A stretch of 64,000 nt of DNA from Gammaproteobacteria bacterium (GTDB lineage: Bacteria > Pseudomonadota > Gammaproteobacteria > Eutrophobiales > Eutrophobiaceae): assembly GCA_021773235.1 (NCBI GenBank), contig JAJFKL010000043.1:14072-78071 (forward strand). The letters are read 5' to 3'. The position numbers were made by a program, and so were the translations under genes. Within the stretch, counting starts at the first letter, position 1. Each line of letters starts with the position of its first letter. Below the pieces are notes generated by a model that worked only from the letters and a program-made list of their open reading frames with translations, was not told where the DNA came from and ran no database searches. Positions 6,696 through 64,000 of this stretch are shown one piece after another.

Positions 6696-6821
6696 ATATG
6701 TAGTAACAAATGAATATTTATATAGCAGGTTAATTAAATTGTCATCGATGAAATATGAGGAATATTTTTTAGATTAGCATTAGAGATTAAATACTGAACA
6801 GTAATTACCTATAATTTAATA

Positions 6822-7895: not shown

Positions 7896-7914
7896 AGTGT
7901 TTCTAATATAAAGA

Positions 7915-29119: not shown

Positions 29120-29124
29120 TAGTA

Positions 29125-45656: not shown

Positions 45657-46889
45657 TTAGACAACAAGTTCATTTAGTCCCAATATTGCAACAAGAATAG
45701 ATAATATAATGACTGCAATCATACCACCAAGCCCAAGTATAAGAACGGGTTCGACTAAGGTCAGCATGCGTTTAATCAAAGAGTTTGTTTCCTGATCATA
45801 AATATCGGCAATTTTTAATAGCATATTCTCTAATTGCCCGGTTTCTTCGCCTACTGCTATTAATTGTATCGCGAGTTGAGGAAAGCGTTGTTCTTTACTT
45901 AATGCTTCTGCAAGTCGACCGCCTTGTTCAAGATTGTGTGTGACCGTGTCCATTACTTCAGCAATGATGCGGTTATTGATAACCTCGCGCACGATGGACA
46001 CACCCATTAATAAAGGAACGCCATTACTGAGTAGCGTACCTAAAGTACGGGAGAATCGTGACACTTCAATTTTCGAGATCAATTCACCATAAAGCGGTAT
46101 TGAAAGAAGAAAGTTATCCCAGCGCCAACGTTTTTCTGGATCTTCAAGTTGTCGTTGAAATAACCAATAGCCACCCACAGCTAATATAGGAAAGGCCCAC
46201 CAAAAACTTTGGAATAGTTCTGCTGTTCCAAACACAAGCTGTGTTGATAAGGGGAGTGCTTGACCGACATCTTCAAATAAAGGCACAAATTGAGGCACGA
46301 CAAACACCATTAACGCGATCACAGATATTATGGCAATGAAAAATAAAATTAGTGGATATATTAATGCAGAAATAATGGTTGAACGCATTTCAGCGCTGCG
46401 CTCAAGATAATCTGATAATCGTTGTAAGACTACTTCTAATGCACCACCAGCTTCACCCGCACGGATCATGTTGAGATAGAGGCGACTAAAACTTTTGCCT
46501 TGCGCTTCCATTGCATCTGACAAGGATGAACCGCCTTGAACGCGGGTATAAATATTATTCACCAAAGAGGCAACAACCGGGTTAGAGCTGACACCTTCTA
46601 AGGTTTGTAAGGCCTGATCAAGTGGTAACCCTGCATGCAAGAGTGTAGCGAGTTCTCTTGTCATGATCGTAATATGATTGGCATTTAATTGACCGTTATT
46701 AAAACGCGGTAATTTGAATGAACGATTTGTATTTCTCTTTACTTTAGAGGCTTCAATTGCGCTGATTGGGATATGACCAGAGTTCTGTAATTTTTCAATC
46801 GCAATAGACTGCGAAGCAGCCTCCATTTCACCTTCCAATTTTTTGCCGCTACTCGTTACAGCTTTATAGAAATAAGTGGGCATGATCAT
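45657..46889 (-). CDS. gspF: T2SS inner-membrane platform protein GspF
   Basis: 410 aa. Two GspF repeats. 3 TM. Confidence 0.9.
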   Translation of the reverse strand: MIMPTYFYKAVTSSGKKLEGEMEAASQSIAIEKLQNSGHIPISAIEASKVKRNTNRSFKLPRFNNGQLNANHITIMTRELATLLHAGLPLDQALQTLEGVSSNPVVASLVNNIYTRVQGGSSLSDAMEAQGKSFSRLYLNMIRAGEAGGALEVVLQRLSDYLERSAEMRSTIISALIYPLILFFIAIISVIALMVFVVPQFVPLFEDVGQALPLSTQLVFGTAELFQSFWWAFPILAVGGYWLFQRQLEDPEKRWRWDNFLLSIPLYGELISKIEVSRFSRTLGTLLSNGVPLLMGVSIVREVINNRIIAEVMDTVTHNLEQGGRLAEALSKEQRFPQLAIQLIAVGEETGQLENMLLKIADIYDQETNSLIKRMLTLVEPVLILGLGGMIAVIILSILVAILGLNELVV

Positions 46890-48613
46890 TCACGAGTAAC
46901 GCGCATAACATCGTCTATTGTTGTAATGCCTTTTAGCGCTTTTTTAATGCCATCGATTTGCATGGTGTCCATGCCTTCATTAATCGCTTCACTTTGTAAG
47001 GTCGTGCCGTCAGCATGAGATAAGATAAGTCGTCGTATGGATTCAGAAATTAATAAAAATTCATTTATAACACTGCGGCCAAGATAACCATTATCCATAC
47101 AACCAACACACCCCACCGGCTCGTATAAGGTTATCTCATTACTTGTTTCATACTGGTCAAGTTTTAACTCGTCGATTAACTCTGGCAGAGGCTGAAAAGA
47201 TTTTCGGCATGCGCCACACAATACTCTCACCAGACGTTGTGCAAGAATGCCATTTAAGGTGGAGGTTAAGAGATAATCTTCAACTCCCATATCGAGTAAG
47301 CGAGTAAGCGAACTACCCGCATCGTTAGTGTGCAATGTAGAAAAGACAAGATGGCCGGTCAAAGCTGATTGCACAGCAATACTCGCCGTTTCAAGATCAC
47401 GCATTTCGCCAATCATTATAACATCGGGGTCTTGTCGGACAATGGAGCGCAGCGCATCACCAAAGTTAAGACCAATCTGCGGTTTTACCTGAATTTGATT
47501 GACCCCTTCGAGTTGATACTCCACAGGATCTTCTACCGTAAGTATTTTTTTGTCTGGCGTATTGAGTTGGTCTAGTGCGGTGTATAGCGTGGTCGTTTTA
47601 CCACTACCTGTCGGACCCGTGACTAAAATAATGCCATGCGGAAGTTTTAAAACTTCCTGCACCTTTTCTTTATTCGCTTTAGAAAAGCCGAGTGAATCAA
47701 AACTAAGACTGACATGTTCTTTATCAAGGATACGCATTACCAGACTTTCACCATGCATGGTCGGAACAGTCGACACACGTAAATCAATCAATTTACCTTG
47801 TGTACGTATCTGAATACGTCCGTCCTGTGGTAATCGACGCTCAGCGATATTCATCTTTGCCATAATCTTGACTCTGGAGATAACAGCAGCAGTTGAACGG
47901 GCAGGGGGTGCTTCAGCTTCCTGCAAAACACCATCAATGCGATAGCGTATTTTTAAGCGACTTTCAAAGGGTTCAATGTGAATATCTGAGGCACGTGACT
48001 CAATAGCATTATTAATGACTAAGCTAACGAGTCTTATAACGGGCGCTTCAGCAGCCAAATCTTTTAAGCGTTCAATTGAATCATCCTCAGTGCCATTCTG
48101 GTCAATATCAATCTCTTCAACGATATCTGCGAGTTTTGTTTGACCATCGCCATAGAATCGTTCCAACGCATTTTCAATTTGTGAAATTGAAGCAATCTTT
48201 GGAATGACTTCTTTATTCGTTGCCAGTTTAATTGCTTGCAATGTATAAGAATCGGTTGGGTCTGCCATTGCGACAACAAGACTTTCCTCCTGTTGTTCAA
48301 TTGGAATAACAAAATATTCTTTTAAAAATTTTGCAGGAAGAGCATCTTCCAATAGAGGTGTATTAGGGAAATCATCATTATTTATTTCAGCAAGATTAGT
48401 GACCTTGCTAAGAGTCGACGCCATGTCACGGTCGGAGATAAGTCCTAATTGAACCAAAAGAATACCTAAAGCAGTGCCATTTTCATTATGTAGTTCTATT
48501 ATTCGTGTTAATTCATCCTGCTTCAATTTTCCTTCAGACAGTAGGAATTGAATGACGTCGCCATTGTCAGCATTCTCAGTAGAAGTCTTTTGTTCAGGTA
48601 AAGTCATTAACAT
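46886..48613 (-). CDS. gspE: T2SS ATPase GspE
   Basis: 575 aa. Walker A GPTGSGKTT. Tetracysteine CGAC...CVGC. Asp and His boxes. Confidence 0.9.
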   Translation of the reverse strand: MLMTLPEQKTSTENADNGDVIQFLLSEGKLKQDELTRIIELHNENGTALGILLVQLGLISDRDMASTLSKVTNLAEINNDDFPNTPLLEDALPAKFLKEYFVIPIEQQEESLVVAMADPTDSYTLQAIKLATNKEVIPKIASISQIENALERFYGDGQTKLADIVEEIDIDQNGTEDDSIERLKDLAAEAPVIRLVSLVINNAIESRASDIHIEPFESRLKIRYRIDGVLQEAEAPPARSTAAVISRVKIMAKMNIAERRLPQDGRIQIRTQGKLIDLRVSTVPTMHGESLVMRILDKEHVSLSFDSLGFSKANKEKVQEVLKLPHGIILVTGPTGSGKTTTLYTALDQLNTPDKKILTVEDPVEYQLEGVNQIQVKPQIGLNFGDALRSIVRQDPDVIMIGEMRDLETASIAVQSALTGHLVFSTLHTNDAGSSLTRLLDMGVEDYLLTSTLNGILAQRLVRVLCGACRKSFQPLPELIDELKLDQYETSNEITLYEPVGCVGCMDNGYLGRSVINEFLLISESIRRLILSHADGTTLQSEAINEGMDTMQIDGIKKALKGITTIDDVMRVTRE

Positions 48614-48845: not shown

Positions 48846-49841
48846 ATGTCTATATTGATGGGATGGAGTAAACAAATAATCTCTGCTTCGAAGTTATTAT
48901 TCATTTCTTTATTATGTCTGAGCTTACACTCATATGCTGATACGCAACGTATTATTGAATATGGATACGATGGTGCAGGTAATATAATCAGTATTAGCTC
49001 GACAAGAAATTTAAACTCGCCTGTCATCTCAGATGTATCACCAAACCGTGTGCGCATCAACTCAAACATAGCCTTTACAGCAACAGGTACTGATCTGAAT
49101 AACACGCACGTAACGACTGATCACGTTGACTTAGTCGTTAGTAATGTTAATACCGCTGCCACGACAATCACGTTTGAACTAGATGCCGCAAACAGTGTTC
49201 CACTAGGACAGCATACGTTAACATTTACGACGCTACTCGGTAGTGTAACAGCACTGGTTGAAGTAGTATCCGAGATTCCAACTATTATGGTATTACCATC
49301 ACCTCTTACGTTGGAACCGGGTGGTGAAGTTATTACACTCGATGTTTTTTTTACCGCCAGTGATATAGTTGATCAGACATTAAGCATTTCTATCCCTGAT
49401 CCAAACATTGCGACTGTCAATGTTAGCAGCATTACGATCCTTGCCGGGCAAACCAGCGCAGCACAAACGATTCAGATCACCAGTAATAATCTCGGTTTTA
49501 CTTCACTGGATATTACAACGCCTGATTTGGTGGATGGGCATGTCAATCTATTTGTCACAGATCGTTTCGTTCCCGGAGTAGGGACACACACAACAAATGC
49601 AAAACCTATAAGTTTATTTATTCCTTCAGCTATCAGTGGACAAGGAACCACACAGATATCGCCATTGGTCAGCCCAGTACTCAGTGTCAATGTTGCCGAC
49701 AGTGCAAACGAAGATGTGGTGGTGTCGCCGGTTGTCTCACCCGTGCTGAGTGTGTTGATCAGTAATGAGACAACAACAACTAATTTAATAAGCCCAGTTG
49801 TCACACCTGTAATCAGTATTTTAAAGGAAGAAACGCCATGA
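48846..49841 (+). CDS. secreted protein with N-terminal YD-like motif and Ig/IPT-like domains
   Basis: 331 aa. Signal peptide. RIIEYGYDGAGNIISI resembles an RHS YD repeat. Beta-rich Thr/Val repeats. C-terminal SPVxSPV repeats. First gene of the operon that ends in the giant RHS gene. Confidence 0.6.
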   Translation: MSILMGWSKQIISASKLLFISLLCLSLHSYADTQRIIEYGYDGAGNIISISSTRNLNSPVISDVSPNRVRINSNIAFTATGTDLNNTHVTTDHVDLVVSNVNTAATTITFELDAANSVPLGQHTLTFTTLLGSVTALVEVVSEIPTIMVLPSPLTLEPGGEVITLDVFFTASDIVDQTLSISIPDPNIATVNVSSITILAGQTSAAQTIQITSNNLGFTSLDITTPDLVDGHVNLFVTDRFVPGVGTHTTNAKPISLFIPSAISGQGTTQISPLVSPVLSVNVADSANEDVVVSPVVSPVLSVLISNETTTTNLISPVVTPVISILKEETP

Positions 49842-49903
49842 ACAATTCACTTCAATTTATTACGATTAAATTCATCAAACCCCGGTTTAATGGGAGGACA
49901 ATT

Positions 49904-51415
49904 ATGGAAACCTTGAATAATAAAAATCACTTGTCAGCAACCATTGGCGCATTACTGTTGGTATTAAGTCAATCAGTCACTGCGTTTGACAGTGGCAGTA
50001 CCGGTGCCGATGGTGTCTTAAACCCGACCATAGATACAGTATTAAATGTGCCCGAGCCAGACGGTATTTTTAATTTCACCAGTGTTAATATTCCCTTAGG
50101 TGTGACAGTGACCTTCGCACCTAATACGACCAATACACCAGTGACTTTTTTGTCTAGCGGTGATGTCCAAATTGATGGGACGCTAAGCGTGAATGGCGGT
50201 GATTCTTTTGATGTGGGTACTGCAGGTGATAGTAATCTTGCTGATGATGGGCAACCTGGGTTAGGTGGGCCTGGTGGCTTTAATGGTGGTACTGGCGGAG
50301 ATTTTGGAGCCTCCGAGCGTGGTAGTGATGGACAAGGACCTGGTGCCGGCGGTGGCGGACGATTTCGTACTGGCACCACAGGTTGCGGCGGTGCCGGCGG
50401 CAGCTTTTCGACTTCTGCTGACGATGGAAGTGTAGTTGGTTTTGGTTGTGTTGGAAATAACGGCTTACGTGGGCCGAATTATGGGACAAACGAGCTTTCC
50501 CCGTTGATTGGCGGTTCTGGCGGCGGCGGTGCTGCTAGTGGGACTGTCTATAGAGGTTCTGGCGGCGGCGGTGGCAGCGGCGCGATTCTTATTGCAGCAA
50601 CCGGCATTATTACTGTGAATGGTCTACTTAGCGCGAGAGGTGGAAACTCAGGCGATAGTGCTGGCACGAGTGTGGAAGGTATCGGTGGTACCGGTGGTGC
50701 CGGTAGTGGTGGTGCAATTCGCCTAATCGCTACAGAAATAACAGGTGTAGGTACGTTAAATGTTGAAGAAGGTGTACCCGGTGATTCCATATCACAAAAC
50801 GGAAGAGAAGGTGGAAAGGGTGGCCGCGGACGCATTAGACTGGAATCGCCTTTAGCCACGTTTGCAGGCAGTATAATTCCATCCAATAGCTCAAGTATCT
50901 TTTCTCTTAGCAGTGTTCCGGGCAACGTCTTTGTCGCCGGCATGCCCAGTTTGTCAATCACCACAGTTGATGGCCAAACTGCACCAGTGTTGCCTACCGG
51001 TAATCTTGATCCAGCTAATACCGACATTACCTTGCCGGTCAGCACAGTAAATCCTGTAACAATCAATTTTGCGACTACGAATGTACCTGTGAATGGTACG
51101 ACAGCCGTCGACTTAACAGTTGTCCCAGAGTTTGCAACTGCAATAACAGTAACTTCAACAGTCTTAGCAGGGGATACAAATTCAGCCACAGCCAGTGCAT
51201 CCGTGTCTATCCCGCCGGGATTAAGTGTGTTGCAAGCCGAACTGAGTTTCACTGTGACGGTGGCGATGGGTGAAGAATTTTCTCGCTTTGCAGAAGGTGA
51301 GCAGGTTGCAAAAGTAAAGCTTAATGTCAATCCTGAAGGTCAATCCGAAACAACGTTTGTCACAATCAGTGGGGAAGAATTTACCTTTCTCTCGAATGCT
51401 ATCGCAATGCGCTGA
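49904..51415 (+). CDS. secreted glycine-rich (GGxGG) beta-helix-like protein
   Basis: The track ORF starts at 49838 (ATGA overlap with the upstream gene). The signal peptide begins at an internal Met (METLNNKNHLSATIGALLLVLSQSVTA). Contains long GGxGGxG tracts. Confidence 0.55.
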   Translation: METLNNKNHLSATIGALLLVLSQSVTAFDSGSTGADGVLNPTIDTVLNVPEPDGIFNFTSVNIPLGVTVTFAPNTTNTPVTFLSSGDVQIDGTLSVNGGDSFDVGTAGDSNLADDGQPGLGGPGGFNGGTGGDFGASERGSDGQGPGAGGGGRFRTGTTGCGGAGGSFSTSADDGSVVGFGCVGNNGLRGPNYGTNELSPLIGGSGGGGAASGTVYRGSGGGGGSGAILIAATGIITVNGLLSARGGNSGDSAGTSVEGIGGTGGAGSGGAIRLIATEITGVGTLNVEEGVPGDSISQNGREGGKGGRGRIRLESPLATFAGSIIPSNSSSIFSLSSVPGNVFVAGMPSLSITTVDGQTAPVLPTGNLDPANTDITLPVSTVNPVTINFATTNVPVNGTTAVDLTVVPEFATAITVTSTVLAGDTNSATASASVSIPPGLSVLQAELSFTVTVAMGEEFSRFAEGEQVAKVKLNVNPEGQSETTFVTISGEEFTFLSNAIAMR

Positions 51416-51420: not shown

Positions 51421-54400
51421 ATGCGCGTAAGGGACAAGGCACTAAGTAAAATGAACAAACAACAGAGTGAGACTAAACACACGACGTTATCGCGACGCGT
51501 GTCAATACGGAAGCGTAAATGGTTAGTCGGTGTAACAGCGATGACAATTATTGCTGGTATTACAGCAACAGCCGTTTTGGATTTTAGTAAACAACGCTCG
51601 CTTAAAAATGCTAAAACAGTCACGCCTGCTCACGTGACTGTTAATAATAAACTTGCTCAAGCTGCTCTTATTAATAATTACGCTCAACTCCCCTTACAGT
51701 TCGAACAAAACCGTGGTCAAACCAATGACGAAGTGGAATACGTCTCACGTGGCTCTGGTTATACCTTATTTCTAACCCCAACTGAAACCGTGCTGACGTT
51801 ACAACGAAGCAGCGGCAAACAAAACGAGCAAGCCGTTGTTAGAACCTCCTTTGTCAATGCCAATGTGCCAGTAGTCTTTAATGGCAACAACGTCTTGCCC
51901 GGCAAAGTGAATTACCTCATTGGCCGTGATGAAAGCAAATGGCTCACCGATATCCCGACCTATACCGATGTCATCGCCAAAGAGATCTACCCTGGCATCG
52001 ACCTGCGTTATCACGGTGACCAAAGGCAACTCGAATATGATTTTATTGTTGCACCGGGAGTCAATACCGATGACATCCAACTACAGTTTAGTGGCGTTGA
52101 CCTATTACGTATCGGTGAAGAAGGGCAGTTAGTTATCGAAACAGCACAAGGCACACTGCAGCACAAAAAACCGATCGTCTATCAAGACATCAGCGGTGAA
52201 CGAATTACTGTCGAAGGTAACTACCTTCTGAGTGAAAATAAAATAGTAAGTTTTAAGTTAGGGCAATACGATCCAAACCATGAACTAATAATCGATCCTA
52301 TCCTCGACTACTCGACGTACCTTGGAGGTGAAGCGGATGACAGAGGCCTAGCCATAGCGGTTGATGATGCAGGCAATGCTTATGTTGCGGGCACCACCGT
52401 ATCGGCAAGTTTCCCGGTCGTGAATGCTTACCAAACAAGCCTTAGTGGGAGTAAAGATACCTTTATCGCCAAACTGAATGCCAATGGTGATGCTTTGGTC
52501 TACGCGACCTACTTTGGTGGCAGTGGTGATGAAGATGACGACGATGATGATGATAGTGATGATGACTACGGTGAAGACGACGAAGACGATAATGACGAAG
52601 GCGATTCTGATAAAGATACCGGTAAAGACATTACTGTTGATGCCAATGGATATCTTTATATTACTGGCAGCACCAACTCCGATACTGACTTCCCCATCGT
52701 CAATGCCGTACAAAGTACTTACGGCGGTGGTGATCGCGATGCTTATGTCGCCAAACTCTCGGTCGATGGCAGCAGCTTACTTTTTTCCACCTACCTCGGT
52801 GGAAGTAATAAAGACAAAGGCTTTGGCATTGCTTTAAGCAATAATGGTAACGTCTTTGTTACGGGTAAGACCAAATCAAACAACTTCCCAACGACGGCCA
52901 ATGCTTATCAAACCAGCCATGCCGGTAACGGCGATGCGTATGTTGTGCAACTGGCGGGCGACGGTTCACAACTCAACTATGCTACCTACTTGGGTGGCTC
53001 TAAATCCGATAATGCAAAAGCCATTGCAATAGATAGTTCAGGGAATGCTGCTATCACTGGTGTTACCAAATCCAAGAATGATTTTCCGTTACACAATGCC
53101 CTGCAACCGAGCTTTGGTGGTGGCGGACGCGATGCCTATGTCGCACAACTCAATGCCAGTGGTAATGCACTAAACTACTCCACCTATTTAGGCGGTGCCA
53201 AAAAAGACAAAGGCCGCGGAATTACGATCGATAGTCATGACAACGTTATCGTAGTTGGTTTAACAAAATCCAAGACCGACTTTCCCTTAGTCAATTCTCT
53301 ACAGTCCACCTATGGTGGTGGCAGTGATGACGGCTTCATCAGCAAACTCAACAGTGCAGGCAGTGGCCTAACTTTCTCTACCTACCTCGGTGGTGAAAAG
53401 ACCGACAGACTAAATAGTGTTGTGGTCGATAGCAACGATGACATCTATGTTGTCGGCACCACCAAATCTACCAACGGAATTCCGACCACTGATGCCGAGC
53501 AGGCACAACTGTCTGGTAGCAAACGCGATGCCTTTATTACCAAACTGAGTCATGATGGCAGTAGTGTTATTTATGGTACTTACCTAGGGGGTAGCAAGAG
53601 CGACCGCGGTAAAGATATCGCCGTTGATGGACAAGATGCCTACATCACCGGTGTCACCAAATCCGATATTGATTTCCCCACCCTGAATGCTCTGCAACCT
53701 CTATTCGGCGGCAGTAATAAAGATGCGTTTGTTGTCAAAATAGCCGAAGAGGTTACCAATCAAGATCCAGAAATTACATCAACACCAATAACCGATGCAT
53801 TGGCAGGACAACTCTATAGCTATGATGTCGATGCGACCGATGCAGATGAAGACGATGTTTTAGTTTACAACCTACAAGTCTTCCCCACAGGTATGGTTAT
53901 TGATACCAACACAGGACTCATTAGTTGGACGCCGACTGTAATCGGGGTAGTCAATGTCACTGTTCAAGTCGATGACGGTAACAATGGTACTGCAACACAA
54001 AGTTACAGTATTAATGTTACCGATTCAGATGTGATCGCACCAACGATCACGATTACCTCACCGCAAGAGGGTTTAAACACCAATCAGGCAAACCAGACAA
54101 TCACGGGCACACTTGATGAAACGGCGACATTGACATTGAATGGTAATTTGGTTGCCGTTAATCTGGACTTAAGCTTTAGTGCTACTGTTACTCTAGTTGA
54201 AGGTGTAAATAGTTATACTTTTGAAGCCACCGATGCAGCAACCAATTTTGGTGCAGCGTCACTAACATTGAATTTGGATACAGTCTTACCTGTCGTCACG
54301 ATTACATCGCCACAAGATGGACTCGTTACTAATCAAACCACACAAACGATCATCGGTAGTCTAAGTGAACCTGCAACATTCACGATCAATGGACAAGCAG

Positions 54401-57400
54401 TTACCGTTAACCCTGATCTCAGTTTTAGCACTAATGTCATCTTAGTCGAAGGTGCGAATGCAATCACCATTGAAGCGACGGATGCCGTAAGCAATGTCGG
54501 CAATGCTGCGTTAACTTTAAACCTCGATACCGAACCACCCGTTATTACGATTAACGCACCACAAGATGGATTAATTACGAATCAATCAGCACAAACCATA
54601 ACCGGTAGTTTAAGCGAAACAACTACGTTAACGATCAATGGACAAACAGTCACGGTTAATCCTGACTTAACCTTTAGTACAGATGTCACCTTAGTTGAAG
54701 GTGCAAACAGTTATACTTTTGAAGCCACCGATGCAGCAACCAATCTTGATGCAGCGTCACTAACATTGAATTTGGATACAGTCTTACCTGTCATCACGAT
54801 TACATCGCCACAAGATGGACTCATTACTAATCAAACCACACAAACGATCATCGGTAGTCTAAGTGAACCTGCAACACTCACGATCAATGGACAAGCAGTT
54901 ACCGTTAACCCTGATCTCAGTTTTAGCACTAATGTCATCTTAGTTGAAGGTGCGAATGCAATCACCATTGAAGCGACGGATGCCGCAAGCAATGTGGGGA
55001 ATGCAAGCTTAACCTTAATCCTTGATACGGTTGCACCGGATATCACAATTACTGATCCGCTTGATGGCAGTTTAACCAACCTTGTTGATCAAACCATTAC
55101 CGGTAATTTGGATGAAATAGCAACACTGACATTTAATACGGCCAGCGTACCCGTTAACCCGGACAATACATTTAGCGTTGGCCCGGTTGCATTAATAGAA
55201 GGGGGTAACACGTTTACCTTTGAAGCGACAGATACGGCAGGCAATGTTAGCACACAATCGATAACAGTCACACTCGATACCATTGCGCCTGCCATTACCG
55301 TGAACGATCCGGTCGATGGCAGTGTCACCAATCAAGCAAACCAAACTATTACTGGCTCGGTTGATGAGGCTGGTGCCTTTAGGATTAACGGTACTGCTGT
55401 GACACTAAACTCGGACAATACTTTTAGTTCCGATGTGCTCTTGGTTGAAGGCGAAAACACGTTTACGCTTGAGATCACCGATGCGACAATGAATGTTAAT
55501 ACTCAAACCTTAACGGTAACATTAGATACTGTTGCAGCAGTAATCACAGTGGTAAGCCCACAAGAGGGGTTGGTTACCAACCAGGCAGCACAAACCATAA
55601 CGGGTAGCATAAACGAAACCGCAAGCCTAACAATTAACGGGCAAGCTGTGTCCATCAACCCGGACAATACTTATAGTTTTGCCGTTACCTTAATGGAAGG
55701 TGTCAATAGCTTTACTCTGGAAGCGATAGATACGGGGACAAACACAAGCACACAAAACCTAACTCTGAACCTGGATACCATTACACCGGTAGTCACGATT
55801 ACCAATCCGGCTGATGGTTTACTATCTAATAACCCAAGTCAACTGATAACGGGTAGTGTTAGTGAAGTGGCATCGTTAACCATTAATGGACAAGCAGTAA
55901 GCCTAAACCCGGACAATAGTTTTAGCTTTGGCCCAATCACTATGGCAGAAGGTGCGAATACCATCACCGCGATTGCGACGGATGCGGCAACGAATAGCAC
56001 AACCACTACCATTAATGTAAGTCTCGATACCGTGGCTCCGGTGATTAGCGTTACCAGCCCAGTTGATGGTGCGTTGACGAATCAAAGTCAAATTGTTGTA
56101 GCAGGGAGCTTAAGTGAACAAGGTAACCTCACAATAAATGGACAAGCTATCACAGTAAATCTGGATGGCAGTTTTAGTGCGATAGTTAGCCTTGTTGAAG
56201 GTGCAAATACAGTTACCTTAACGGCAAGCGATGCAGCAACGAATGTCAGTCAAAGTGTTCTAACCGTCAATAGTGATACGATTGCACCGATCATTAACAT
56301 TACGACGCCAATCAATCGCAGTAGCACTAACCAAGCAGCGCAATTGGTCACAGGCTCATTAAGTGAAGCAGCAACCTTATTAATAAACGGTCAGGCAGTC
56401 ACAGTGAACCCCGACTTAAGCTTTAGCTTTGGTCCGATCACATTGGCCGAAGGGGCAAACTCGATCAGCGTAAGCGCGACCGATGCGGCAACGAACAATA
56501 GTGCGGGTAACGTCAGTGTCACCCTGGATACAGTCATACCCACGTTAATCTTGGATAGCCCAACAGGGGACATCCTCACTAACCAATCAACCGTTAGCTT
56601 TAGCGGTAGCGTAGATGAAACGGTAAGTCTTACGATTAATGGTCAAGCGGTAACCCAAAATCCGGACAATACCTTTAGCGCAAATGTCACGGTAGCTGAA
56701 GGCAGTAATGTAGTCGATGTTGTTGCAACCGATGCAGGTGGTAATAGCGTCACACAAAGCATCAACATCACTATCGATACGATTGCACCAAGCACGCCGA
56801 TTATTAGCTTAACCAATCGCGGTAATCCGCTAAATGGAATCGTTATGGTGACGGGTTTACCCGGTGCCGCTGAGCCGGGAACATTAATACACGTTATTAA
56901 TCCCGTCACCAATTATGAAGCCTTGGTCTTGGCACAAAGCGATGGTAGCTTTAGTACCGATGTTGCTGGTTTCGCCAATGATATCTTTTCTATCATTACG
57001 ATGGATGCGGCAGGTAATATCAGCGCACCTGTAGTTTTGATTCCAAACCCACCATTAGCATTAACGCTGGATGCCATTGGTAACAAAACCGCGCCCTTAG
57101 GGCAAATTACTCGCTTTACGGTAACTGCAAATGACAGTGAAGGTAATGTAATCGCCTTAGGTTTAACGCCACTTCCATTACCCGCTGGTATGGAATACAA
57201 CATCGCAACAGGTGAATTCAGTTTCCGACCAACAAGCGGACAAGAAGGGGACTATAATTTAACCTTTAGTGCCTTATCGGGTGATGAGCGTGTAGTTGAA
57301 AATGTCACCGTTAATGTATCTGCACCAAACGCAGCAGATCCAACCGATTTAACCGGTCGTATTTTAGATGCCAGTAGCATGCAAGGTGGCACGATTGAAC

Positions 57401-60400
57401 CGATTGTCGGTGCAACCGTATCATTCCTCGCGACAGGCGTGAGTACAACGACGGATACACAAGGCTTCTTTACCTTAAGTGGTTTGCCTGCGAATGCAGA
57501 AGTATTTGATATCGATACCAGCACGGCACAAGCAGGACCGGGCGGTACCAGCTATGCCGGTTTCCGTGAACAGTTTCCGTTAGTGATTAACGTAACGAAT
57601 ATTGTTGAGCGACCGTTCTACTTACCACGGTTGGCAGCGGAAAGTTTAACTACCGTTGATCCTCTGGTAGAAACGATTGTTAATAACCCAACATTAGGCA
57701 TTGATTTAAGTATCGCTGCAGGAAATGCGATTAATGATTCAGATGGGCAACCGTTTACCGGACAGGTTTCGATTTCGGAAGTACCGCGTAATCTGGCACC
57801 AGCTAACTTACCCGAGTTTATGGATCCGACTTTATTATTCACAATCCAACCGGTCGGTGTGAGTTATACCGTACCCGCACCAATTACTATCGCCAACACT
57901 GAAGGCCATGCGCCTAATAGCGAAGTGGATCTCTGGTCGGTTGATCCGGATCTGGGTCAATTTGTGATCGTAGGTACCGGACAAGTTTCAGCAGATGGGT
58001 CTGAGATCGTAACGATCTCAGGTGGTATCCGTGCTAATGATTGGCATGCATTCCAGCCACCGAATCCGAATACCGGTGGTTCTGGTACTAATGGGAAGAA
58101 ACCATGCCCAACGTGTCCTGAGGAAGATCTTACTTCTACGGTTAGTTTGAACGACGGTCATATGGGAACGCGACATACGCTGCCAGCATATCGTTCGTTA
58201 GAAACTTCACGTGCGTTAACTTTTAGCTATCGCACCTTCAGAGCCTATCCGAGTCCATCAATTCCATATAATAGTGCTATCGATGTCCGTAGTACGGTAC
58301 CAGCAACAGTCTCTTATGATCTGGAAGTCGGTGGCCTGAAACAAGGTCAGGAAGTCTTTATTGATACTTCCGGCTTCAGTGAAGGACTAACTGAAGCATT
58401 TAGTACAGCGATATCATTTGATGCAGCAGAATTTGATTCAGGAATGTATGACTATCGTTTGAAAGTTACCAGTAATTTTAATGGCGGTTCACGTCAAAGT
58501 TTGATTGTTGAAGATGTCGTAATGGTTGTGAATGAACAGCAAAGTCCTTTTGGTGCAGGCTGGATGCTAGAAGGTTTGTATAGCCTTCGGTTTAATGAAG
58601 ATAACAGTGTCACCATGATTGCGCCGAATGGTAACTCCATTTCTTATGATGCCACAGCGACACCGGATCTGTTTGATTCTCCAGACAGCGATTACGCTGT
58701 TTTCAACCGTAACCCGGATGGCAGCTACACCCATACTGAAAAAGATGGTGTCAAAATGCACTTTAATGCCGAAGGACAAATTACCGAGCATGAAGATCGT
58801 AATAACAATATCACGGCTTATGCCTATGATGTTGACGGTAAGTTAATAACGATTACTGATCCAGTGGGCTTAATCACGACCTTTGCTTATGACATAAATG
58901 GCTTGTTAGAAACAGTAACTGATCCAGCTACACGTGTGACTAACTTTGAATACGATGCCACGGGTAATATGACCAAGGTAACTTATCCTGACAATACCTT
59001 CGAGACCTATGAATACGATAATCGTCACTTGATGACGGCACACGAAGATGAACGCCAAAATCGTTTTACCGATCGTTACGATGCCTTTGGTCGAATTATT
59101 GATGGTACCTTGCCGGATGGTACGGTTCGCGCGGGAATTGGACAGAACTCAGCAGCATTAATTGATGTTTCCAGCGGCGTTGGTACAAGTGTCAATCCAG
59201 CACCCGTCATGCGTCCAGCAGATGTTGATGGTGAATACGTTGATGGTCGTGGCAATCCTTCTAATAAAGAACTAGATCCACAGGGCCGTGCAACATTAGA
59301 AATGGACGAAATAGGGCGTATGACATTGCATACGCGCGACGCCGATTCCAATCCAACACAGACAACACGTCCGATAGGTTCCGTTGTAACTCGAACCTTT
59401 GATACCTTCGGTAATGTGCTAACGCAGAAAGAAGAGTTTAATACGGCGACGACAACGTATACCTACGATCCATTTAGTTTGGTAACAACAGTAACAAACC
59501 CACGTAACCACACGACAACAATCACGCGTGATCCGGCTGATGGTAACCCATTAACAATTGTAAATGAGTTAGGTCATACAACGACCATGGTTTATGACAG
59601 CCGCGGCCTTGTTACCTCAATGACCAGCCCGAACGGATTAGTAACGACGTATACGTACAACACCGAAGGCCTCATGGACACCAAGACTGAAACACCGCCA
59701 GTCAGTAGCCCGGGTAATGTGCGTCTTTGGACTTATGCCTATTACCCAACGGGACTTTTACAAACTGTGAATACACCCGATGGGATTACACTGACCTATA
59801 CTTATGATGACCGTAGCTTCCTGACCAGTGTTACCGATAATCTCAATCAATCGATTATCTACACCTACGATGACCATAAAAACGTGACTCGAACAGAAAC
59901 GCGCAGTAGCGATGGTAGCTTGGCCTTGCTCGTTGACAGCATCTACGATAATCGTAATCGCCTGACACAGACTAAAGCGCCGCACGTTGGCATCGAAGAA
60001 TCCATCACGCAACGCATACTCGATGAAAATAGTAATTTGATTGGCTTAATTGATCCAAACGGTAATCCCCGCAGTAATGTCTATGATGCTTTCAATCGAC
60101 TCGATAATAACACCCATAGAGAGGGGGGTATTACGGACTACACTTATGATGATCAAGATCGTATTACCAAAGTCGAAGCCCCGAACGGTGTCGTTACTGA
60201 CTATGAATACGACATCATCAGTCGTCGCACCAAAGAGATAAGCCCAGACCGAGGCACGATTACTTATGTGTATGACTTGGCTAACAACGTCACCACCATC
60301 ACCGAGGGCAGAGGCATTGTTGCCAGCATGACCTATGATGAATTGGAACGTGTGGGCACCAAGACCTACCCGAACACCATCATTGGTAAAAATGAGAATG

Positions 60401-62082
60401 TCACCTATACCTATGATACCTGTAACTTTGGTTTAGGCTTTCTCTGTACCCGTGCCGATGAATCGGGAACGTATGACTACAACTACGATGCCTATGGCAA
60501 TATGACCGATGGCACCTTCACCGAGATCGAAGGCACCGTCTATACTATGAGTTACCTGTATGACGATGGTGACCATATCATCCAAAGCACCTATCCAAGT
60601 GGCAGGGTCGTTGATTATGCAAGAGATGGCGTACGCCGTGTCGAAGCAATCGACACCACACTGAATGGCACAGCACAGAGTATCGTCAGCAACATCCAAT
60701 ACCGGGGTGACAACCAAATCACACAATGCACCTTTGGTAATGGATTGATTGATGAAAGAAGCTATGATCTACAAGGACGACTCACCAATCAATTACTGCG
60801 AGATGCCTTGAATACACTGATTGACGACAGGACATATACCTACGACAAAAATAGCAACGTGTTAAACATTGCGACGAACGTAGAGGATAATGCGTATCTG
60901 TACGACAAGTTAGATCGACTAACGAGCGACACCATTGATAACAACACACCGTTCGACTTCAGTTATGACTTGAACGACAATCGCTTGACTAAAAACTTAC
61001 AAGACCTGACCTTGCAAGAATTCTTTGAGCAACAGGAAAATAGTAATCGCATCAGCATACTGGAAACCGTGCAAGCGGGCGCGACGCCGATAGATACCAC
61101 CCCCAATCGCGACCTCATCTATAACGACGTGGGCAGACTCTATCAACTGATAGAAGAGGGCACCTTAAAGGCCGAATACATCTACAACGATGCGGGGCAA
61201 CGAACAAGGAAAACAAACTACCAAGCTGATGGTATCACTGTAGACAATATCACCATCTACCACTACGACCATATGGGTTATTTGATAACGGAAACGACAG
61301 AGCTTGGTGACCTTATCAAAGATTACATTTGGCAAGAAGGTATGACACCTGTTGCCCAAATCGACAACAACGCCGGAACAGAGAGTATTGTTTATTTGTA
61401 TACAGATCATTTGATGACGAACCGACTTGCAACAGACGACACACAAGCAGTTGTATGGCGTTGGGAAGGGGAAGCGTTTGGGAATACGGCGGCGCAGGAA
61501 ATCTCAGGAGTAAGTGTTAATCTCCGATTCCCCGGACAGTACTTTGATTCTGAGACGAATCTGCATTACAACATGGCTCGCTATTACGACCCACAACTTG
61601 GAAGATATATAACAAGTGACCCAATTGGGTTAAATGGTGGATTAAATACGTATGTGTATGTTAACCAAAATCCTATTCTATCTTCTGATCCAGAAGGTCA
61701 AGCATCGATTGGTGGAGTAGCTGCAACTGTTGTACTTGCTGTCGGAGCCGCAGCTAGGTTATGTAGTAAATTTCCCAAAGCTTGTAACAAAGCTCTTAAA
61801 TGTATGAGGAATCCAAAACTATGTAGAAAAAAAGCATGTAATAAGGTTAACAGGGCTATGCATAAAGTATGTGATTCAGCACGTTCTTGTAAAGGCGGTG
61901 ACTCATGCATGGTTATAATTAGAAAAGCTGCGCATTTATCTTCATGTTTAGCAATGAGATATGCAGTAAGATTATGTCATGGTCGTAATAACGACCCAAG
62001 ACCAACAGGCCATGCGCAAGCAATACGGGAAACTAAAGGTAGAATTAAAGATTGTTGGGATAAGTTTAAATGTTGCTCTTAA
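51421..62082 (+). CDS. giant RHS-family polymorphic toxin (SBBP beta-propeller repeats + Ig-like repeat array + YD repeats + RHS core + C-terminal toxin domain)
   Basis: 3553 aa. N-terminal signal-anchor. SBBP-type repeats (YVAGTTVSASFPVVNAYQT..., 52320-53730). Cadherin-like/putative-Ig segment. About 12 Ig-like repeats of about 80 aa (54016-56790). CarbopepD-reg-like segment. Many YD repeats (58740-61320). RHS core PGQYFDSETNLHYNMARYYDPQLGRYITSDPIGL (DPxGL at about 61618). Then an AT-rich, Cys-rich C-terminal domain of about 135 aa. Confidence 0.9.
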   Translation: MRVRDKALSKMNKQQSETKHTTLSRRVSIRKRKWLVGVTAMTIIAGITATAVLDFSKQRSLKNAKTVTPAHVTVNNKLAQAALINNYAQLPLQFEQNRGQTNDEVEYVSRGSGYTLFLTPTETVLTLQRSSGKQNEQAVVRTSFVNANVPVVFNGNNVLPGKVNYLIGRDESKWLTDIPTYTDVIAKEIYPGIDLRYHGDQRQLEYDFIVAPGVNTDDIQLQFSGVDLLRIGEEGQLVIETAQGTLQHKKPIVYQDISGERITVEGNYLLSENKIVSFKLGQYDPNHELIIDPILDYSTYLGGEADDRGLAIAVDDAGNAYVAGTTVSASFPVVNAYQTSLSGSKDTFIAKLNANGDALVYATYFGGSGDEDDDDDDDSDDDYGEDDEDDNDEGDSDKDTGKDITVDANGYLYITGSTNSDTDFPIVNAVQSTYGGGDRDAYVAKLSVDGSSLLFSTYLGGSNKDKGFGIALSNNGNVFVTGKTKSNNFPTTANAYQTSHAGNGDAYVVQLAGDGSQLNYATYLGGSKSDNAKAIAIDSSGNAAITGVTKSKNDFPLHNALQPSFGGGGRDAYVAQLNASGNALNYSTYLGGAKKDKGRGITIDSHDNVIVVGLTKSKTDFPLVNSLQSTYGGGSDDGFISKLNSAGSGLTFSTYLGGEKTDRLNSVVVDSNDDIYVVGTTKSTNGIPTTDAEQAQLSGSKRDAFITKLSHDGSSVIYGTYLGGSKSDRGKDIAVDGQDAYITGVTKSDIDFPTLNALQPLFGGSNKDAFVVKIAEEVTNQDPEITSTPITDALAGQLYSYDVDATDADEDDVLVYNLQVFPTGMVIDTNTGLISWTPTVIGVVNVTVQVDDGNNGTATQSYSINVTDSDVIAPTITITSPQEGLNTNQANQTITGTLDETATLTLNGNLVAVNLDLSFSATVTLVEGVNSYTFEATDAATNFGAASLTLNLDTVLPVVTITSPQDGLVTNQTTQTIIGSLSEPATFTINGQAVTVNPDLSFSTNVILVEGANAITIEATDAVSNVGNAALTLNLDTEPPVITINAPQDGLITNQSAQTITGSLSETTTLTINGQTVTVNPDLTFSTDVTLVEGANSYTFEATDAATNLDAASLTLNLDTVLPVITITSPQDGLITNQTTQTIIGSLSEPATLTINGQAVTVNPDLSFSTNVILVEGANAITIEATDAASNVGNASLTLILDTVAPDITITDPLDGSLTNLVDQTITGNLDEIATLTFNTASVPVNPDNTFSVGPVALIEGGNTFTFEATDTAGNVSTQSITVTLDTIAPAITVNDPVDGSVTNQANQTITGSVDEAGAFRINGTAVTLNSDNTFSSDVLLVEGENTFTLEITDATMNVNTQTLTVTLDTVAAVITVVSPQEGLVTNQAAQTITGSINETASLTINGQAVSINPDNTYSFAVTLMEGVNSFTLEAIDTGTNTSTQNLTLNLDTITPVVTITNPADGLLSNNPSQLITGSVSEVASLTINGQAVSLNPDNSFSFGPITMAEGANTITAIATDAATNSTTTTINVSLDTVAPVISVTSPVDGALTNQSQIVVAGSLSEQGNLTINGQAITVNLDGSFSAIVSLVEGANTVTLTASDAATNVSQSVLTVNSDTIAPIINITTPINRSSTNQAAQLVTGSLSEAATLLINGQAVTVNPDLSFSFGPITLAEGANSISVSATDAATNNSAGNVSVTLDTVIPTLILDSPTGDILTNQSTVSFSGSVDETVSLTINGQAVTQNPDNTFSANVTVAEGSNVVDVVATDAGGNSVTQSINITIDTIAPSTPIISLTNRGNPLNGIVMVTGLPGAAEPGTLIHVINPVTNYEALVLAQSDGSFSTDVAGFANDIFSIITMDAAGNISAPVVLIPNPPLALTLDAIGNKTAPLGQITRFTVTANDSEGNVIALGLTPLPLPAGMEYNIATGEFSFRPTSGQEGDYNLTFSALSGDERVVENVTVNVSAPNAADPTDLTGRILDASSMQGGTIEPIVGATVSFLATGVSTTTDTQGFFTLSGLPANAEVFDIDTSTAQAGPGGTSYAGFREQFPLVINVTNIVERPFYLPRLAAESLTTVDPLVETIVNNPTLGIDLSIAAGNAINDSDGQPFTGQVSISEVPRNLAPANLPEFMDPTLLFTIQPVGVSYTVPAPITIANTEGHAPNSEVDLWSVDPDLGQFVIVGTGQVSADGSEIVTISGGIRANDWHAFQPPNPNTGGSGTNGKKPCPTCPEEDLTSTVSLNDGHMGTRHTLPAYRSLETSRALTFSYRTFRAYPSPSIPYNSAIDVRSTVPATVSYDLEVGGLKQGQEVFIDTSGFSEGLTEAFSTAISFDAAEFDSGMYDYRLKVTSNFNGGSRQSLIVEDVVMVVNEQQSPFGAGWMLEGLYSLRFNEDNSVTMIAPNGNSISYDATATPDLFDSPDSDYAVFNRNPDGSYTHTEKDGVKMHFNAEGQITEHEDRNNNITAYAYDVDGKLITITDPVGLITTFAYDINGLLETVTDPATRVTNFEYDATGNMTKVTYPDNTFETYEYDNRHLMTAHEDERQNRFTDRYDAFGRIIDGTLPDGTVRAGIGQNSAALIDVSSGVGTSVNPAPVMRPADVDGEYVDGRGNPSNKELDPQGRATLEMDEIGRMTLHTRDADSNPTQTTRPIGSVVTRTFDTFGNVLTQKEEFNTATTTYTYDPFSLVTTVTNPRNHTTTITRDPADGNPLTIVNELGHTTTMVYDSRGLVTSMTSPNGLVTTYTYNTEGLMDTKTETPPVSSPGNVRLWTYAYYPTGLLQTVNTPDGITLTYTYDDRSFLTSVTDNLNQSIIYTYDDHKNVTRTETRSSDGSLALLVDSIYDNRNRLTQTKAPHVGIEESITQRILDENSNLIGLIDPNGNPRSNVYDAFNRLDNNTHREGGITDYTYDDQDRITKVEAPNGVVTDYEYDIISRRTKEISPDRGTITYVYDLANNVTTITEGRGIVASMTYDELERVGTKTYPNTIIGKNENVTYTYDTCNFGLGFLCTRADESGTYDYNYDAYGNMTDGTFTEIEGTVYTMSYLYDDGDHIIQSTYPSGRVVDYARDGVRRVEAIDTTLNGTAQSIVSNIQYRGDNQITQCTFGNGLIDERSYDLQGRLTNQLLRDALNTLIDDRTYTYDKNSNVLNIATNVEDNAYLYDKLDRLTSDTIDNNTPFDFSYDLNDNRLTKNLQDLTLQEFFEQQENSNRISILETVQAGATPIDTTPNRDLIYNDVGRLYQLIEEGTLKAEYIYNDAGQRTRKTNYQADGITVDNITIYHYDHMGYLITETTELGDLIKDYIWQEGMTPVAQIDNNAGTESIVYLYTDHLMTNRLATDDTQAVVWRWEGEAFGNTAAQEISGVSVNLRFPGQYFDSETNLHYNMARYYDPQLGRYITSDPIGLNGGLNTYVYVNQNPILSSDPEGQASIGGVAATVVLAVGAAARLCSKFPKACNKALKCMRNPKLCRKKACNKVNRAMHKVCDSARSCKGGDSCMVIIRKAAHLSSCLAMRYAVRLCHGRNNDPRPTGHAQAIRETKGRIKDCWDKFKCCS

Positions 62083-62563
62083 ATTAAATCGAGATTTTAA
62101 TATTGTGAATAAAGATGAATTATTAAATTGCTTAGAGAGTGCTTTTGCTAACATAGCTTACCCGAAGAATAGAGATTTCTATAAAGCTATAGCTGAAAAA
62201 GAATATGAAGATTATATTGACCCTGGGGAGAATAAAAGGTGGGAAGATCTTTCGAAAGATGAACTACAAAAGCATTACGATTTTATTTATTACCTGGATT
62301 CTGATGCTAAAGTTTATTACTTGCCTTCCTATATAAAATTAATTCTTGAAAACAGTAAGTGTAAAGAAGATGAACATTTTATAGATTTGTGCACAAGTTG
62401 TTTGTTTACACTGTTATCTGAGATTGATATCAAAACCTTAAATGCTAGGCAGCTTCAAATTATTAATCATTTTTTGAATTATTGCCGAGAGATTATTTAT
62501 CCAATATTTGATTTAAATATAACTCATTTAAAAAAAATACAGAAACATTTAGAAGGGAATTAA
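62012..62563 (+). CDS. candidate cognate immunity protein for the RHS C-terminal toxin
   Basis: ORF immediately 3' of the toxin gene. No in-frame ATG after the RHS stop, so the start is either ATG 62012 (71-nt overlap) or GTG 62105. AT-rich like the C-terminal domain. Confidence 0.4.
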   Translation: MRKQYGKLKVELKIVGISLNVALKLNRDFNIVNKDELLNCLESAFANIAYPKNRDFYKAIAEKEYEDYIDPGENKRWEDLSKDELQKHYDFIYYLDSDAKVYYLPSYIKLILENSKCKEDEHFIDLCTSCLFTLLSEIDIKTLNARQLQIINHFLNYCREIIYPIFDLNITHLKKIQKHLEGN

Positions 62564-62582: not shown

Positions 62583-62936
62583 ATGTTATCAGAATATACA
62601 AAAAAGAGAGTCTCAATTGTATTATTGTTTTTTTGTTTTTCAACCAGCGTTCTATATTCCTATATACTATCATTTTCTGAACGTGGCCTTCCTTTTCTTG
62701 ATTGGTTCAACATTTCTCTCTATATTATATGGTTTGGAATACTGGCTTGGATTGCATGGAATATTCATAGAGATAAACCAAGAGCGAAAGATGTGGTTTT
62801 ATTTTTTTCTTGCCTAGTAATATTATTAACAGGGTTTGACCTTTATGAGAAAGATGGTTCTTTACTACTGGCAGGAATTAGTTTGATTGAAGCATCGTTT
62901 CTTTTTTCAGTCTATGTACTTCTTAAGCAAGAATAA
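62583..62936 (+). CDS. small membrane protein (3-4 TM), possible orphan immunity protein
   Basis: 117 aa, hydrophobic. Located in the toxin/immunity graveyard downstream of the RHS gene. Confidence 0.35.
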   Translation: MLSEYTKKRVSIVLLFFCFSTSVLYSYILSFSERGLPFLDWFNISLYIIWFGILAWIAWNIHRDKPRAKDVVLFFSCLVILLTGFDLYEKDGSLLLAGISLIEASFLFSVYVLLKQE

Positions 62937-62995: not shown

Positions 62996-63142
62996 ATGAC
63001 AAAAGAAAAGACAGGCAAAGACAAACCTGAAGATAAGCCGAAACCACATTACGAGTTGGATGAACTCCTCGCTAAAATCACTCCGGAAAATATGCACCCT
63101 GAAATCTCGATCGGTCCACCTGTCGGAGATGAACTTCTATAA
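62996..63142 (+). pseudogene. MazE/PemI-family antitoxin, C-terminal fragment only
   Basis: 48 aa ...ELDELLAKITPENMHPEISIGPPVGDELL resembles the C-terminal tail of MazE ([28 protein letters not shown]). Lacks the N-terminal AbrB-type domain. No toxin gene adjacent. Confidence 0.35.
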
Positions 63143-63200
63143 GAGCTCACTGAGCTTCCCAGACATTACAGAATAATTTAGATGATTCTTCTAAATGGTC

Positions 63201-63473
63201 TTATTCATGGTCACATTCGCCATCAAATTTGGAAGCTTCTTCTGGAATAGAAACAGTAAGAAATTCTTCTATCACTTTTTCAGGTAATTCATGCGTATAT
63301 AAAATTTGGCGATCCAAGGATTTCAGTCGAATAAACTCTTTAATAGAGAGCAGCACAACATCATCGTGGCCCCGGTGCGTAATCACAACGGGATTACTTT
63401 GAGCTTCTTTTCTATACCGACCAAATTCTTTTCGTAATTCTGATGCGCTTATTCTATTCATAATAGATTCCAC
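63201..63473 (-). CDS. Phd/YefM-family type II antitoxin (no adjacent toxin)
   Basis: 90 aa with ISASELRKEFGRY...NPVVITHRGHDDVVLLSIKEF typical of Phd/YefM. No Doc/YoeB/ParE-like ORF downstream. Confidence 0.65.
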   Translation of the reverse strand: MESIMNRISASELRKEFGRYRKEAQSNPVVITHRGHDDVVLLSIKEFIRLKSLDRQILYTHELPEKVIEEFLTVSIPEEASKFDGECDHE

Positions 63474-63804: not shown

Positions 63805-64000
63805 ATGGCTATGACAAGGAATGCGCTAAGTCGAACATCTCACCTTAAGCGAACATCTGTATCTCGACGTTCCTCCTGGAATAATTCATCGTTAAATCAT
63901 CGTGGATACAGACGAAAATCTGTCGTAATTACGACAAATAAATTCAAAGCACTTCCCGGCCAGTACTTTGATGCGGAGACCAATCTGTATAATAGGGGAC
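63805..64000 (+). CDS. orphan rhs C-terminal fragment (3'-truncated by window edge)
   Basis: ORF reaching the window end encodes ...KFKALPGQYFDAETNLYNRG. It matches the RHS core motif of the main gene (LRFPGQYFDSETNLHYN) at the nucleotide level (63952..64000 versus 61531..61580). The upstream about 45 aa show no RHS similarity. Confidence 0.5.
   Translation, partial: MAMTRNALSRTSHLKRTSVSRRSSWNNSSLNHRGYRRKSVVITTNKFKALPGQYFDAETNLYNRG

Follow-up and report, generated by a model that had tools for sequence, protein, structure and literature searches.

The 3' end of a large Rhs gene and the open reading frame (ORF) that follows it, at positions 61690–62563 of a 64,000-nucleotide (nt) stretch of contig JAJFKL010000043.1 from a Gammaproteobacteria bacterium (the window, below), very probably form an exchangeable toxin/immunity cassette of a Rhs polymorphic toxin, with a toxin tail belonging to the Ntox16 family and a partner protein belonging to the DUF6714 family. 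A toxin/immunity module at the C-terminal end of a Rhs protein had been proposed by a first-pass annotation made from the sequence alone, and this proposal is now supported by the Rhs core, by the Ntox16 tail and by a conserved partner gene. The parts of the locus, with their lengths in amino acids (aa), are:

51421–62082, plus strand: Rhs/YD-repeat protein gene, 3553 aa (ORF list, Pfam, NCBIfam)
61474–61701, plus strand: Rhs-associated core, residues 3352–3427 (TIGR03696, E 1.3e-25)
61702–61806, plus strand: pre-toxin segment, residues 3428–3462, 35 aa (alignment, AlphaFold2 (AF2) model)
61807–62079, plus strand: Ntox16-type toxin core, residues 3463–3553, three long helices, isoelectric point (pI) about 10 (hhalign, conservation, AF2)
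62105–62563, plus strand: putative immunity gene, 152 aa, DUF6714, GTG start, 22 nt after the toxin stop (PF20461, conserved neighbourhood)

From its N- to its C-terminus, the 3553-aa protein contains a signal-anchor-like helix, then, according to Pfam and NCBIfam, DUF7948, SBBP beta-propeller repeats, immunoglobulin (Ig)-like domains, 11 Glucodextran_B domains, RHS repeats (PF05593, E 2.8e-50) and the Rhs-associated core, and lastly the toxin tail. The translated core ends in ...NPILSSDPEGQ (residues 3417–3427, with D3423 encoded at nt 61687), where DPEGQ is a variant of the DPxGL autoproteolysis motif that reads DPTGE in most relatives. The protein thus combines RHS/YD repeats with a core ending in a DPxG(L)-type motif, as a Rhs polymorphic toxin should. 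It resembles other Rhs/YD-repeat toxins, such as the Rhs toxins of Enterobacteria, WapA of Bacillus and TcC of the Tc toxins, in its YD-repeat shell, its core ending in DPxG, its variable tail and the adjacent immunity gene, as well as in the AT-rich cassette and the orphan core fragment found downstream. Unlike them, it starts with a signal-anchor and includes a very extended series of SBBP, Ig and Glucodextran_B domains, and its gene lies beside a type II secretion system (T2SS) cluster. The closest full-length relative, P0005, shares 61% identity over 2386 aa and carries the same toxin type without the 26-residue leader; the two proteins are ~80% identical towards the end of the core and ~60% identical in the toxin.

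The tail that follows Q3427 comprises 126 aa (residues 3428–3553, nt 61702–62079; translation ASIGGVAATVVLAVGAAARLCSKFPKACNKALKCMRNPKLCRKKACNKVNRAMHKVCDSARSCKGGDSCMVIIRKAAHLSSCLAMRYAVRLCHGRNNDPRPTGHAQAIRETKGRIKDCWDKFKCCS, up to the stop codon) and contains 13 Cys. The 130-aa stretch used as query in our analyses, in which residue 1 is P3424, has 27 Lys and Arg residues and a pI of 9.9. An exhaustive HMMER (phmmer) search with the tail against 1.84 billion protein representatives retrieved 43 relatives at E<=0.001, including 13 at E<=1e-10. The domain is C-terminal in nearly all 43 and mostly placed after a Rhs core, the end of which reads in most relatives PGQYxDxETGLxYNxxRxYDPxxGRYxxxDPxGLxGG...DPTGE. 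It recurs on different scaffolds, namely Rhs proteins, one eCIS_core protein and one stand-alone protein with a signal-peptide-like N-terminus. Other searches returned little: the window tail alone had no match in Pfam, NCBIfam, PADLOC or PDB sequences, a word-indexed homologue search found nothing with the tail and only 3 proteins with the family profile, a profile search of PDB sequences with the toxin family gave nothing, and scans of viral contigs revealed no relatives.

We aligned 39 of the relatives (alignment A1). A Pfam scan of these family members matched 13 of the 39 to Ntox16 (PF15523) at E<=1 (lowest value 2.4e-20), and three of them exceeded the 25-bit cut-off of this family: P0043 (68.7 bits), which additionally carries an eCIS_core/DUF4157 domain, P0044 (36.4 bits) and P0034 (30.6 bits), a stand-alone protein of 116 aa with what looks, on visual inspection, like a Sec signal peptide at its N-terminus. 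These three bona fide Ntox16 members (alignment A4) were found directly by the window tail, with phmmer E values of 5e-5 to 5e-4 in the 1.8-billion-protein library, and the close subfamily of the window (alignment A2, 7 sequences) was aligned to them by hhalign with 98.8% probability (E 1.1e-16, 89 columns, query residues 40–130). R3513 and H3531 align with the conserved R and H of the Ntox16 family, but the acidic residue of its [DNE]xxH motif is displaced by an insertion. Across A1, the residues C67 (C3490), H108 (H3531) and C122 (C3545) are invariant in query numbering, and P42, C45, C50, C61, K79 (K3502), C86, R90 (R3513) and C96 are nearly so. On this comparative evidence, we place the tail in Ntox16 as a divergent member, preceded by a short hydrophobic and Cys-containing segment. 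The first-pass annotation had described a novel Cys-rich, Lys/Arg-rich toxin domain of 135 aa with about 14 Cys; its view of the composition was right, its length and Cys count were slightly too high, and the domain is not new, since it falls within a family catalogued in 2012. Two other assignments were tried and rejected: Pfam DUF19, a weak match (E 0.16) that we attribute to noise from the Cys composition, and a HEPN-like Rx4-6H RNase motif, as 18 residues separate the conserved R from the conserved H and Foldseek recovered no HEPN structure.

In the catalogue of polymorphic toxins of Zhang et al. 2012 (Biol Direct 7:18; PMC3482391), the table entry for Ntox16 describes an alpha-helical domain with a conserved R and [DNE]xxH, found in the context of T2SS, type VI secretion systems (T6SS) and Photorhabdus virulence cassettes (PVC) and associated with RHS repeats and the PVC-metallopeptidase; it is grouped with the 'Predicted metal-independent RNase toxins', and its immunity column is empty (PMC3482391). 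The window tail shares with this family its position as an alpha-helical C-terminal toxin domain of RHS and PVC/eCIS-metallopeptidase proteins, the conserved Arg and, where the last helix begins, a conserved His. Unlike the Pfam Ntox16 model, most Rhs-linked members, including that of the window, add at the N-terminal side a hydrophobic leader and a Cys-containing helix-turn-helix. This pre-toxin segment, which lies outside the Pfam model, consists of a hydrophobic Gly/Ala-rich helix followed by a helix-turn-helix bearing C25, C32 and C38 (query numbering). It is carried by most Rhs-linked relatives and is absent in three close ones (P0005, P0006 and P0009), in the eCIS-linked member and in the stand-alone member.

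The base composition changes at the cassette. GC content is 0.454 in the Rhs body, 0.392 in the tail, 0.37 in the Ntox16 core of the tail and 0.281 in the downstream ORF, and over the whole of 61690–62563 it is 0.327, a value as low as which occurs in only 4.3% of same-length intervals across the 64 kb. The drop from about 45% to about 33% noticed in the first-pass annotation is therefore real. Its exact position, which had been placed right after SSDPEGQ, has to be moved: GC at third codon positions (GC3) changes at approximately codons 3401–3420, slightly upstream of DPEGQ. GC3 within the ORF is a sharper signal than the GC content of the region. It falls from 0.42 to 0.20 within the Rhs ORF, and the value of 0.20 in the last 130 codons compares with a mean of 0.413 (standard deviation 0.073) for all 130-codon intervals of the ORF, among which only C-terminal ones reach 0.20. 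The cassette is not the sole AT-rich region in the 64 kb, because further AT-rich islands at 5600–9000 and 19900–21300 (GC <=0.33 over 874-nt intervals) are as low as the cassette.

The AF2 model of the 130-aa query, computed with the 39-sequence alignment, has a mean pLDDT of 88.4 and a pTM of 0.68. It is a five-helix bundle (residues 7–27, 29–40, 42–62, 73–97 and 107–129), in agreement with the alpha-helical nature of Ntox16. The top PDB matches found with this model by Foldseek (BAG domains, designed bundles and Cys-lined copper-storage proteins) were discarded as generic helical-bundle noise; those to the copper-storage proteins had E values of 2–5, root-mean-square deviations (rmsd) of 9–16 Å and 17–18% identity. 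A Foldseek search against BFVD likewise gave nothing significant (best E 0.01). Two of the BFVD entries, A0A481YS82 and A0A481YU90 from Marseillevirus LCMAC101, superpose on the model with an rmsd of 2.1–2.3 Å over ~85 columns, at 21–22% identity and E 0.15–0.4; these giant-virus proteins may contain a Cys-rich helical domain related to that of the model. The Cys residues of the family covary: loss of C61 goes with loss of C86, the presence of C25 is correlated with that of C32 (r = 0.84), and C73 co-occurs with an extra Cys in the C-terminal tail. Such a pattern fits paired Cys, either as disulfides or as shared metal ligands.

A second line of evidence comes from the gene downstream of the toxin. 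Starting from GTG 62105, the downstream ORF matches DUF6714 (PF20461) with 44.8 bits against a cut-off of 27 (E 1.7e-11, profile positions 1–138 of 161), which places it in this family. Its product of 152 aa is acidic (pI 5.1), without signal peptide, and a public collection of proteins from NCBI and Logan contains an identical sequence of the same length. PDB sequence and profile searches with this protein returned nothing, and a single-sequence structure model was unusable (pLDDT 47.7). To survey the pairing of toxin and partner, we inspected about 9 loci from genome and metagenome collections (alignments A1 and A5 being too divergent to serve in locus scans). In each of the five independent close loci with downstream sequence, the gene right after the toxin encodes a DUF6714 homologue, as expected of a cognate immunity gene:

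L003, Granulosicoccaceae metagenome-assembled genome (MAG): 154-aa homologue, 8-nt overlap with the toxin gene
L004, Gammaproteobacteria MAG: toxin remnant, then a 151-aa ORF
L005: homologue beginning MNKQDLLNEI, whose ATG overlaps the toxin stop
L008: 149-aa homologue, ATGA overlap
L006/L007: more divergent 168-aa ORF

The homologues of L003, L004, L005 and L008 score 32–44 bits with PF20461, and that of L006/L007 18.9 bits, below the cut-off. More distant Ntox16-like toxins have another type of neighbour: the P0027 toxin is followed in L010/L011 by an ankyrin-repeat protein (Ank_5, E 1.6e-14), the Rhs protein of an Eleftheria terrae plasmid (L014) by a protein annotated as ankyrin repeat protein, and the P0046 toxin in L012 by a weak ankyrin match (Ank_4, E 0.003). 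Ankyrin proteins (Imm-Ank) are a recognised immunity type, which the 2012 catalogue entry linked only to Tox-AHH (Zhang et al. 2012, PMC3482391). The proteins directly after the distant toxins (L010/L011, L014 and, weakly, L012) resemble this type, whereas the immunity type of the window is DUF6714. The toxins are basic (median pI 9.0 in the family, 9.9 in the window) and all the partners acidic (pI 4.4–5.8); by inspection, neither DUF6714 nor ankyrin partners have a signal peptide. The first-pass annotation had held that its proposal would fall if the tail matched a non-toxic domain or if the downstream ORF were not conserved beside the same tail; we found that the tail matches a known toxin domain and that the ORF is kept in every close locus examined. 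In L007 (189–1354 and 2352–3801) and also in L009, we observed two tandem orphan Rhs C-terminal cassettes, both of Ntox16 type. The domain of the first one in L007 is a classical Ntox16, and the ORF behind it (152 aa) resembles DUF6714 only weakly (31% probability in hhalign).

Where the immunity gene starts is a real dilemma, as the first-pass annotation had recognised in naming ATG 62012 and GTG 62105 as candidates. The downstream frame (61979–62563) has indeed no Met codon after the toxin stop (62080–62082), and the only canonical start there is GTG 62105. The ATG at 62012, with a 71-nt overlap inside the toxin gene, was correctly located; a further in-frame ATG at 61979 (104-nt overlap) had gone unmentioned. 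GTG 62105 appears to be the better-supported start because the Pfam profile begins there and homologues begin with MNKQ or MNKE. Indeed, profile position 1 of PF20461 aligns to residue 2 of the GTG form, and the start of the DUF6714 protein encoded by an Acaryochloris plasmid (MNKEIVANNIKSAF) aligns exactly with VNKDELLNCLESAF of the window, so that MNKQDLLNEI (L005), MNKEIVANNI (Acaryochloris) and VNKDELLNCL (window) begin at the same aligned position. A GTG start is ordinary. A protein of 183 or 194 aa initiated at ATG 62012 or ATG 61979 has in its favour that these are the sole in-frame ATGs and that toxin/immunity overlaps are common, with relatives overlapping by 1–8 nt. We nevertheless consider it very improbable: the DUF6714 profile begins just after GTG 62105 and covers none of the 42 extra upstream residues of the long form, the match of which is not extended (43.7 bits over residues 44–170, against 44.8 bits for the GTG form), the homologues start at the GTG position or, in L003 and L004, at most about 8 residues earlier, and the product on public record is the 152-aa GTG form. 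Shine-Dalgarno energies (-1.4, -2.5 and -3.0 kcal/mol for the three candidate starts) were all within background and did not discriminate between them, and a promoter/terminator scan gave only chance-level signals. The Acaryochloris gene just mentioned (L015, Acaryochloris sp. plasmid pMB08, 4001–4453) is a lone DUF6714 gene whose neighbour on this mobilizable plasmid is a transposase; its vicinity contains no Ntox16 remnant, and it looks like an orphan immunity gene.

Established Rhs biology suggests how the products of this locus might work. The Rhs YD shell would encapsulate the tail, the aspartyl protease of the core would cut at the DPEGQ junction and release it, and the released tail would enter a neighbouring cell and act in its cytoplasm, the producer being protected by 1:1 binding of the DUF6714 protein. 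The eCIS_core (DUF4157) domain is a marker of injected effectors, and an intracellular, polyanionic target is suggested by the cytoplasmic immunity types, the fusion to the eCIS domain, the combination of basic toxins with acidic partners, and the conserved His, Arg and Lys. The activity of the tail might be directed at nucleic acids, RNA cleavage being the most likely form according to the prediction of Zhang et al. 2012. This metal-independent RNase is the most specific hypothesis available for the tail, and we hold it as doubtful rather than probable; if it applies, the invariant H3531 might serve the activity together with the conserved R3513 and K3502, and the conserved Cys might staple the helices through disulfides or bound metal. 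We give tentative credence to another idea, in which Ntox16 would be a structurally new, Cys-stapled all-alpha fold with an activity other than that of a conventional RNase, for instance a new nucleic-acid-modifying or metal-dependent chemistry based on the invariant Cys and His, with two unrelated immunity families, DUF6714 and ankyrin proteins, recruited by different branches. If so, the window subfamily with its Cys-bearing entry segment, previously unannotated, would be a convenient model pair.

Several observations weigh against assigning the tail to Ntox16 and against a cytoplasmic, RNase-like action. The window tail has no reportable score with the Pfam Ntox16 model even at E<=1 and hence does not reach its gathering score of 25 bits; since it lies below the score of the model, its membership rests on transitive and profile–profile evidence. 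In the window subfamily, a 3-residue insertion turns DxxH into NDPxPxGH, so that the window has NDPRPTGH, that is, D-x5-H instead of [DNE]xxH. Foldseek found nothing significant for the toxin model in the PDB (best E 0.7) and no nuclease-like match, in keeping with the first-pass annotation, which had recognised no known toxin fold, even though the domain belongs to a named toxin family. The literature library that we searched held no published function, structure, immunity partner or experimental activity (toxicity, cleavage or binding) for Ntox16, and the RNase activity was predicted in 2012 solely on the basis of conserved residues. The 8 to 13 conserved Cys are unusual for a toxin acting in the reducing cytoplasm, and the apparent Sec signal peptide of the stand-alone P0034 fits an extracytoplasmic disulfide-bonded protein. 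Finally, the association counts are small, with DUF6714 beside the toxin in only five independent close loci and ankyrin proteins in three.

Part of these features could be expected of a disulfide-stapled, cationic, membrane-active peptide of the saposin-like/NK-lysin type, acting outside the cell or in the periplasm. The domain is basic, all-helical and ~100 aa long, with many conserved Cys that covary pairwise as disulfides would and with a hydrophobic Gly/Ala-rich leading helix; its stand-alone member has a signal-peptide-like N-terminus, and the cassette is followed by an equally AT-rich ORF for a membrane protein of 117 aa, which would then be the real immunity factor. However, this membrane ORF has no counterpart in related loci, where the soluble DUF6714 or ankyrin partner is always present, and partners without signal peptides would encounter the toxin inside the cytoplasm. 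An eCIS loading domain is joined to one member, implying delivery into cells, the close relatives P0005, P0006 and P0009 keep the core without the hydrophobic leader, and Foldseek gave no saposin-like match, all of which makes such a peptide quite improbable. It also appears improbable, if slightly less so, that the tail is chiefly a metal-binding module with Zn or Cu(I) clusters, which would bind or sequester a target or form a Cys/His metal-dependent active site. The heptad-like spacings of Cys on the helices (7, 6, 7, 5, 11, 6, 6, 13, 10) would suit such a bundle, invariance is limited to two Cys and one His, intracellular action disfavours disulfides, and the best weak Foldseek matches include the Cys-lined copper-storage proteins (17–18% identity). 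Nevertheless, these matches are at noise level, the pairwise loss of Cys (C61/C86, C25/C32 and C73 with the tail Cys) fits disulfide partners equally well, and the near-invariant K and R, together with the strong positive charge, suggest that the substrate is a polyanion. We retain the Ntox16/DUF6714 toxin/immunity cassette as the best explanation of the region.

The Ntox16 toxin family, the DUF6714 family and the standard polymorphic-toxin cassette are already known, and this locus, being a cassette of that standard kind, leaves the general picture unchanged. The new elements are modest: a subfamily below the reach of the Pfam model, a Rhs-associated pre-toxin segment and the first immunity partners assigned to Ntox16. 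An unannotated Rhs tail thereby gains a place in a named toxin family. Unlike the 2012 table, which gave no immunity protein for Ntox16, our survey offers candidates for this role, DUF6714 in one branch and ankyrin proteins in another. For DUF6714 (PF20461), for which the literature library searched held no published function, the membership of the window ORF and its placement as putative immunity partner of one Ntox16 branch provide a first functional context, and the compact pair of 126 and 152 aa would be a practical starting point for biochemistry.

The surroundings of the cassette contain two further features:

62583–62936, plus strand: ORF of 117 aa, a four-pass membrane protein by eye (GC 0.31, AT-rich like the cassette)
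63806–64000, plus strand: first part of an orphan Rhs core fragment (…PGQYFDAETNLY…) that is truncated where the window ends

The 117-aa ORF had no family match in Pfam, NCBIfam or PADLOC and no homologue in any related locus. Its place in the toxin module is doubtful; it may instead have conferred immunity to an orphan toxin that has been lost. Within the orphan Rhs fragment, positions 63955–63990 are 86% identical over 36 nt to positions 61531–61566 of the main gene, in the stretch encoding PGQYFD. This shared sequence is a plausible recombination handle for exchange of the toxin/immunity cassette, and an orphan Rhs fragment with such a stretch downstream of the cassette is the typical arrangement for cassette exchange. 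Between the 117-aa ORF and this fragment, at 62996–63473, lie an ORF of 48 aa whose similarity to MazE is confined to the C-terminal part of the latter (E 7e-4) and, on the opposite strand, a Phd/YefM antitoxin gene (63201–63473) with no obvious toxin partner, which together look like a decayed toxin–antitoxin remnant. PADLOC gave no matches.

On the other side, the Rhs gene adjoins a divergently transcribed type II secretion cluster on the minus strand, with GspD at 38000–40141, GspF at 45657–46889 and GspE at 46886–48613, and is preceded by two co-directional ORFs (48846–49841 and 49838–51415) without match in Pfam, NCBIfam or PADLOC. No PAAR, VgrG, Hcp or other T6SS gene was seen in the 64-kb window, as judged from the ORF list and from the subset of ORFs scanned against Pfam. 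Because of the N-terminal signal-anchor, the adjacent T2SS cluster and the absence of any visible T6SS gene, we propose that the export route of the Rhs protein is probably Sec-dependent rather than T6SS-dependent, and it may involve both Sec and the T2SS. Farther away, the window encodes at 27440–35907 a polyketide synthase (PKS)-like enzyme of 2260 aa with ketosynthase, acyltransferase, four acyl carrier protein, ketoreductase and dehydratase domains (KS-AT-4xACP-KR-DH), preceded by an enoyl-reductase/FabD-like protein; this region is reminiscent of synthase clusters for polyunsaturated fatty acids or related lipids. Positions 24010–25977 encode a squalene-hopene cyclase.

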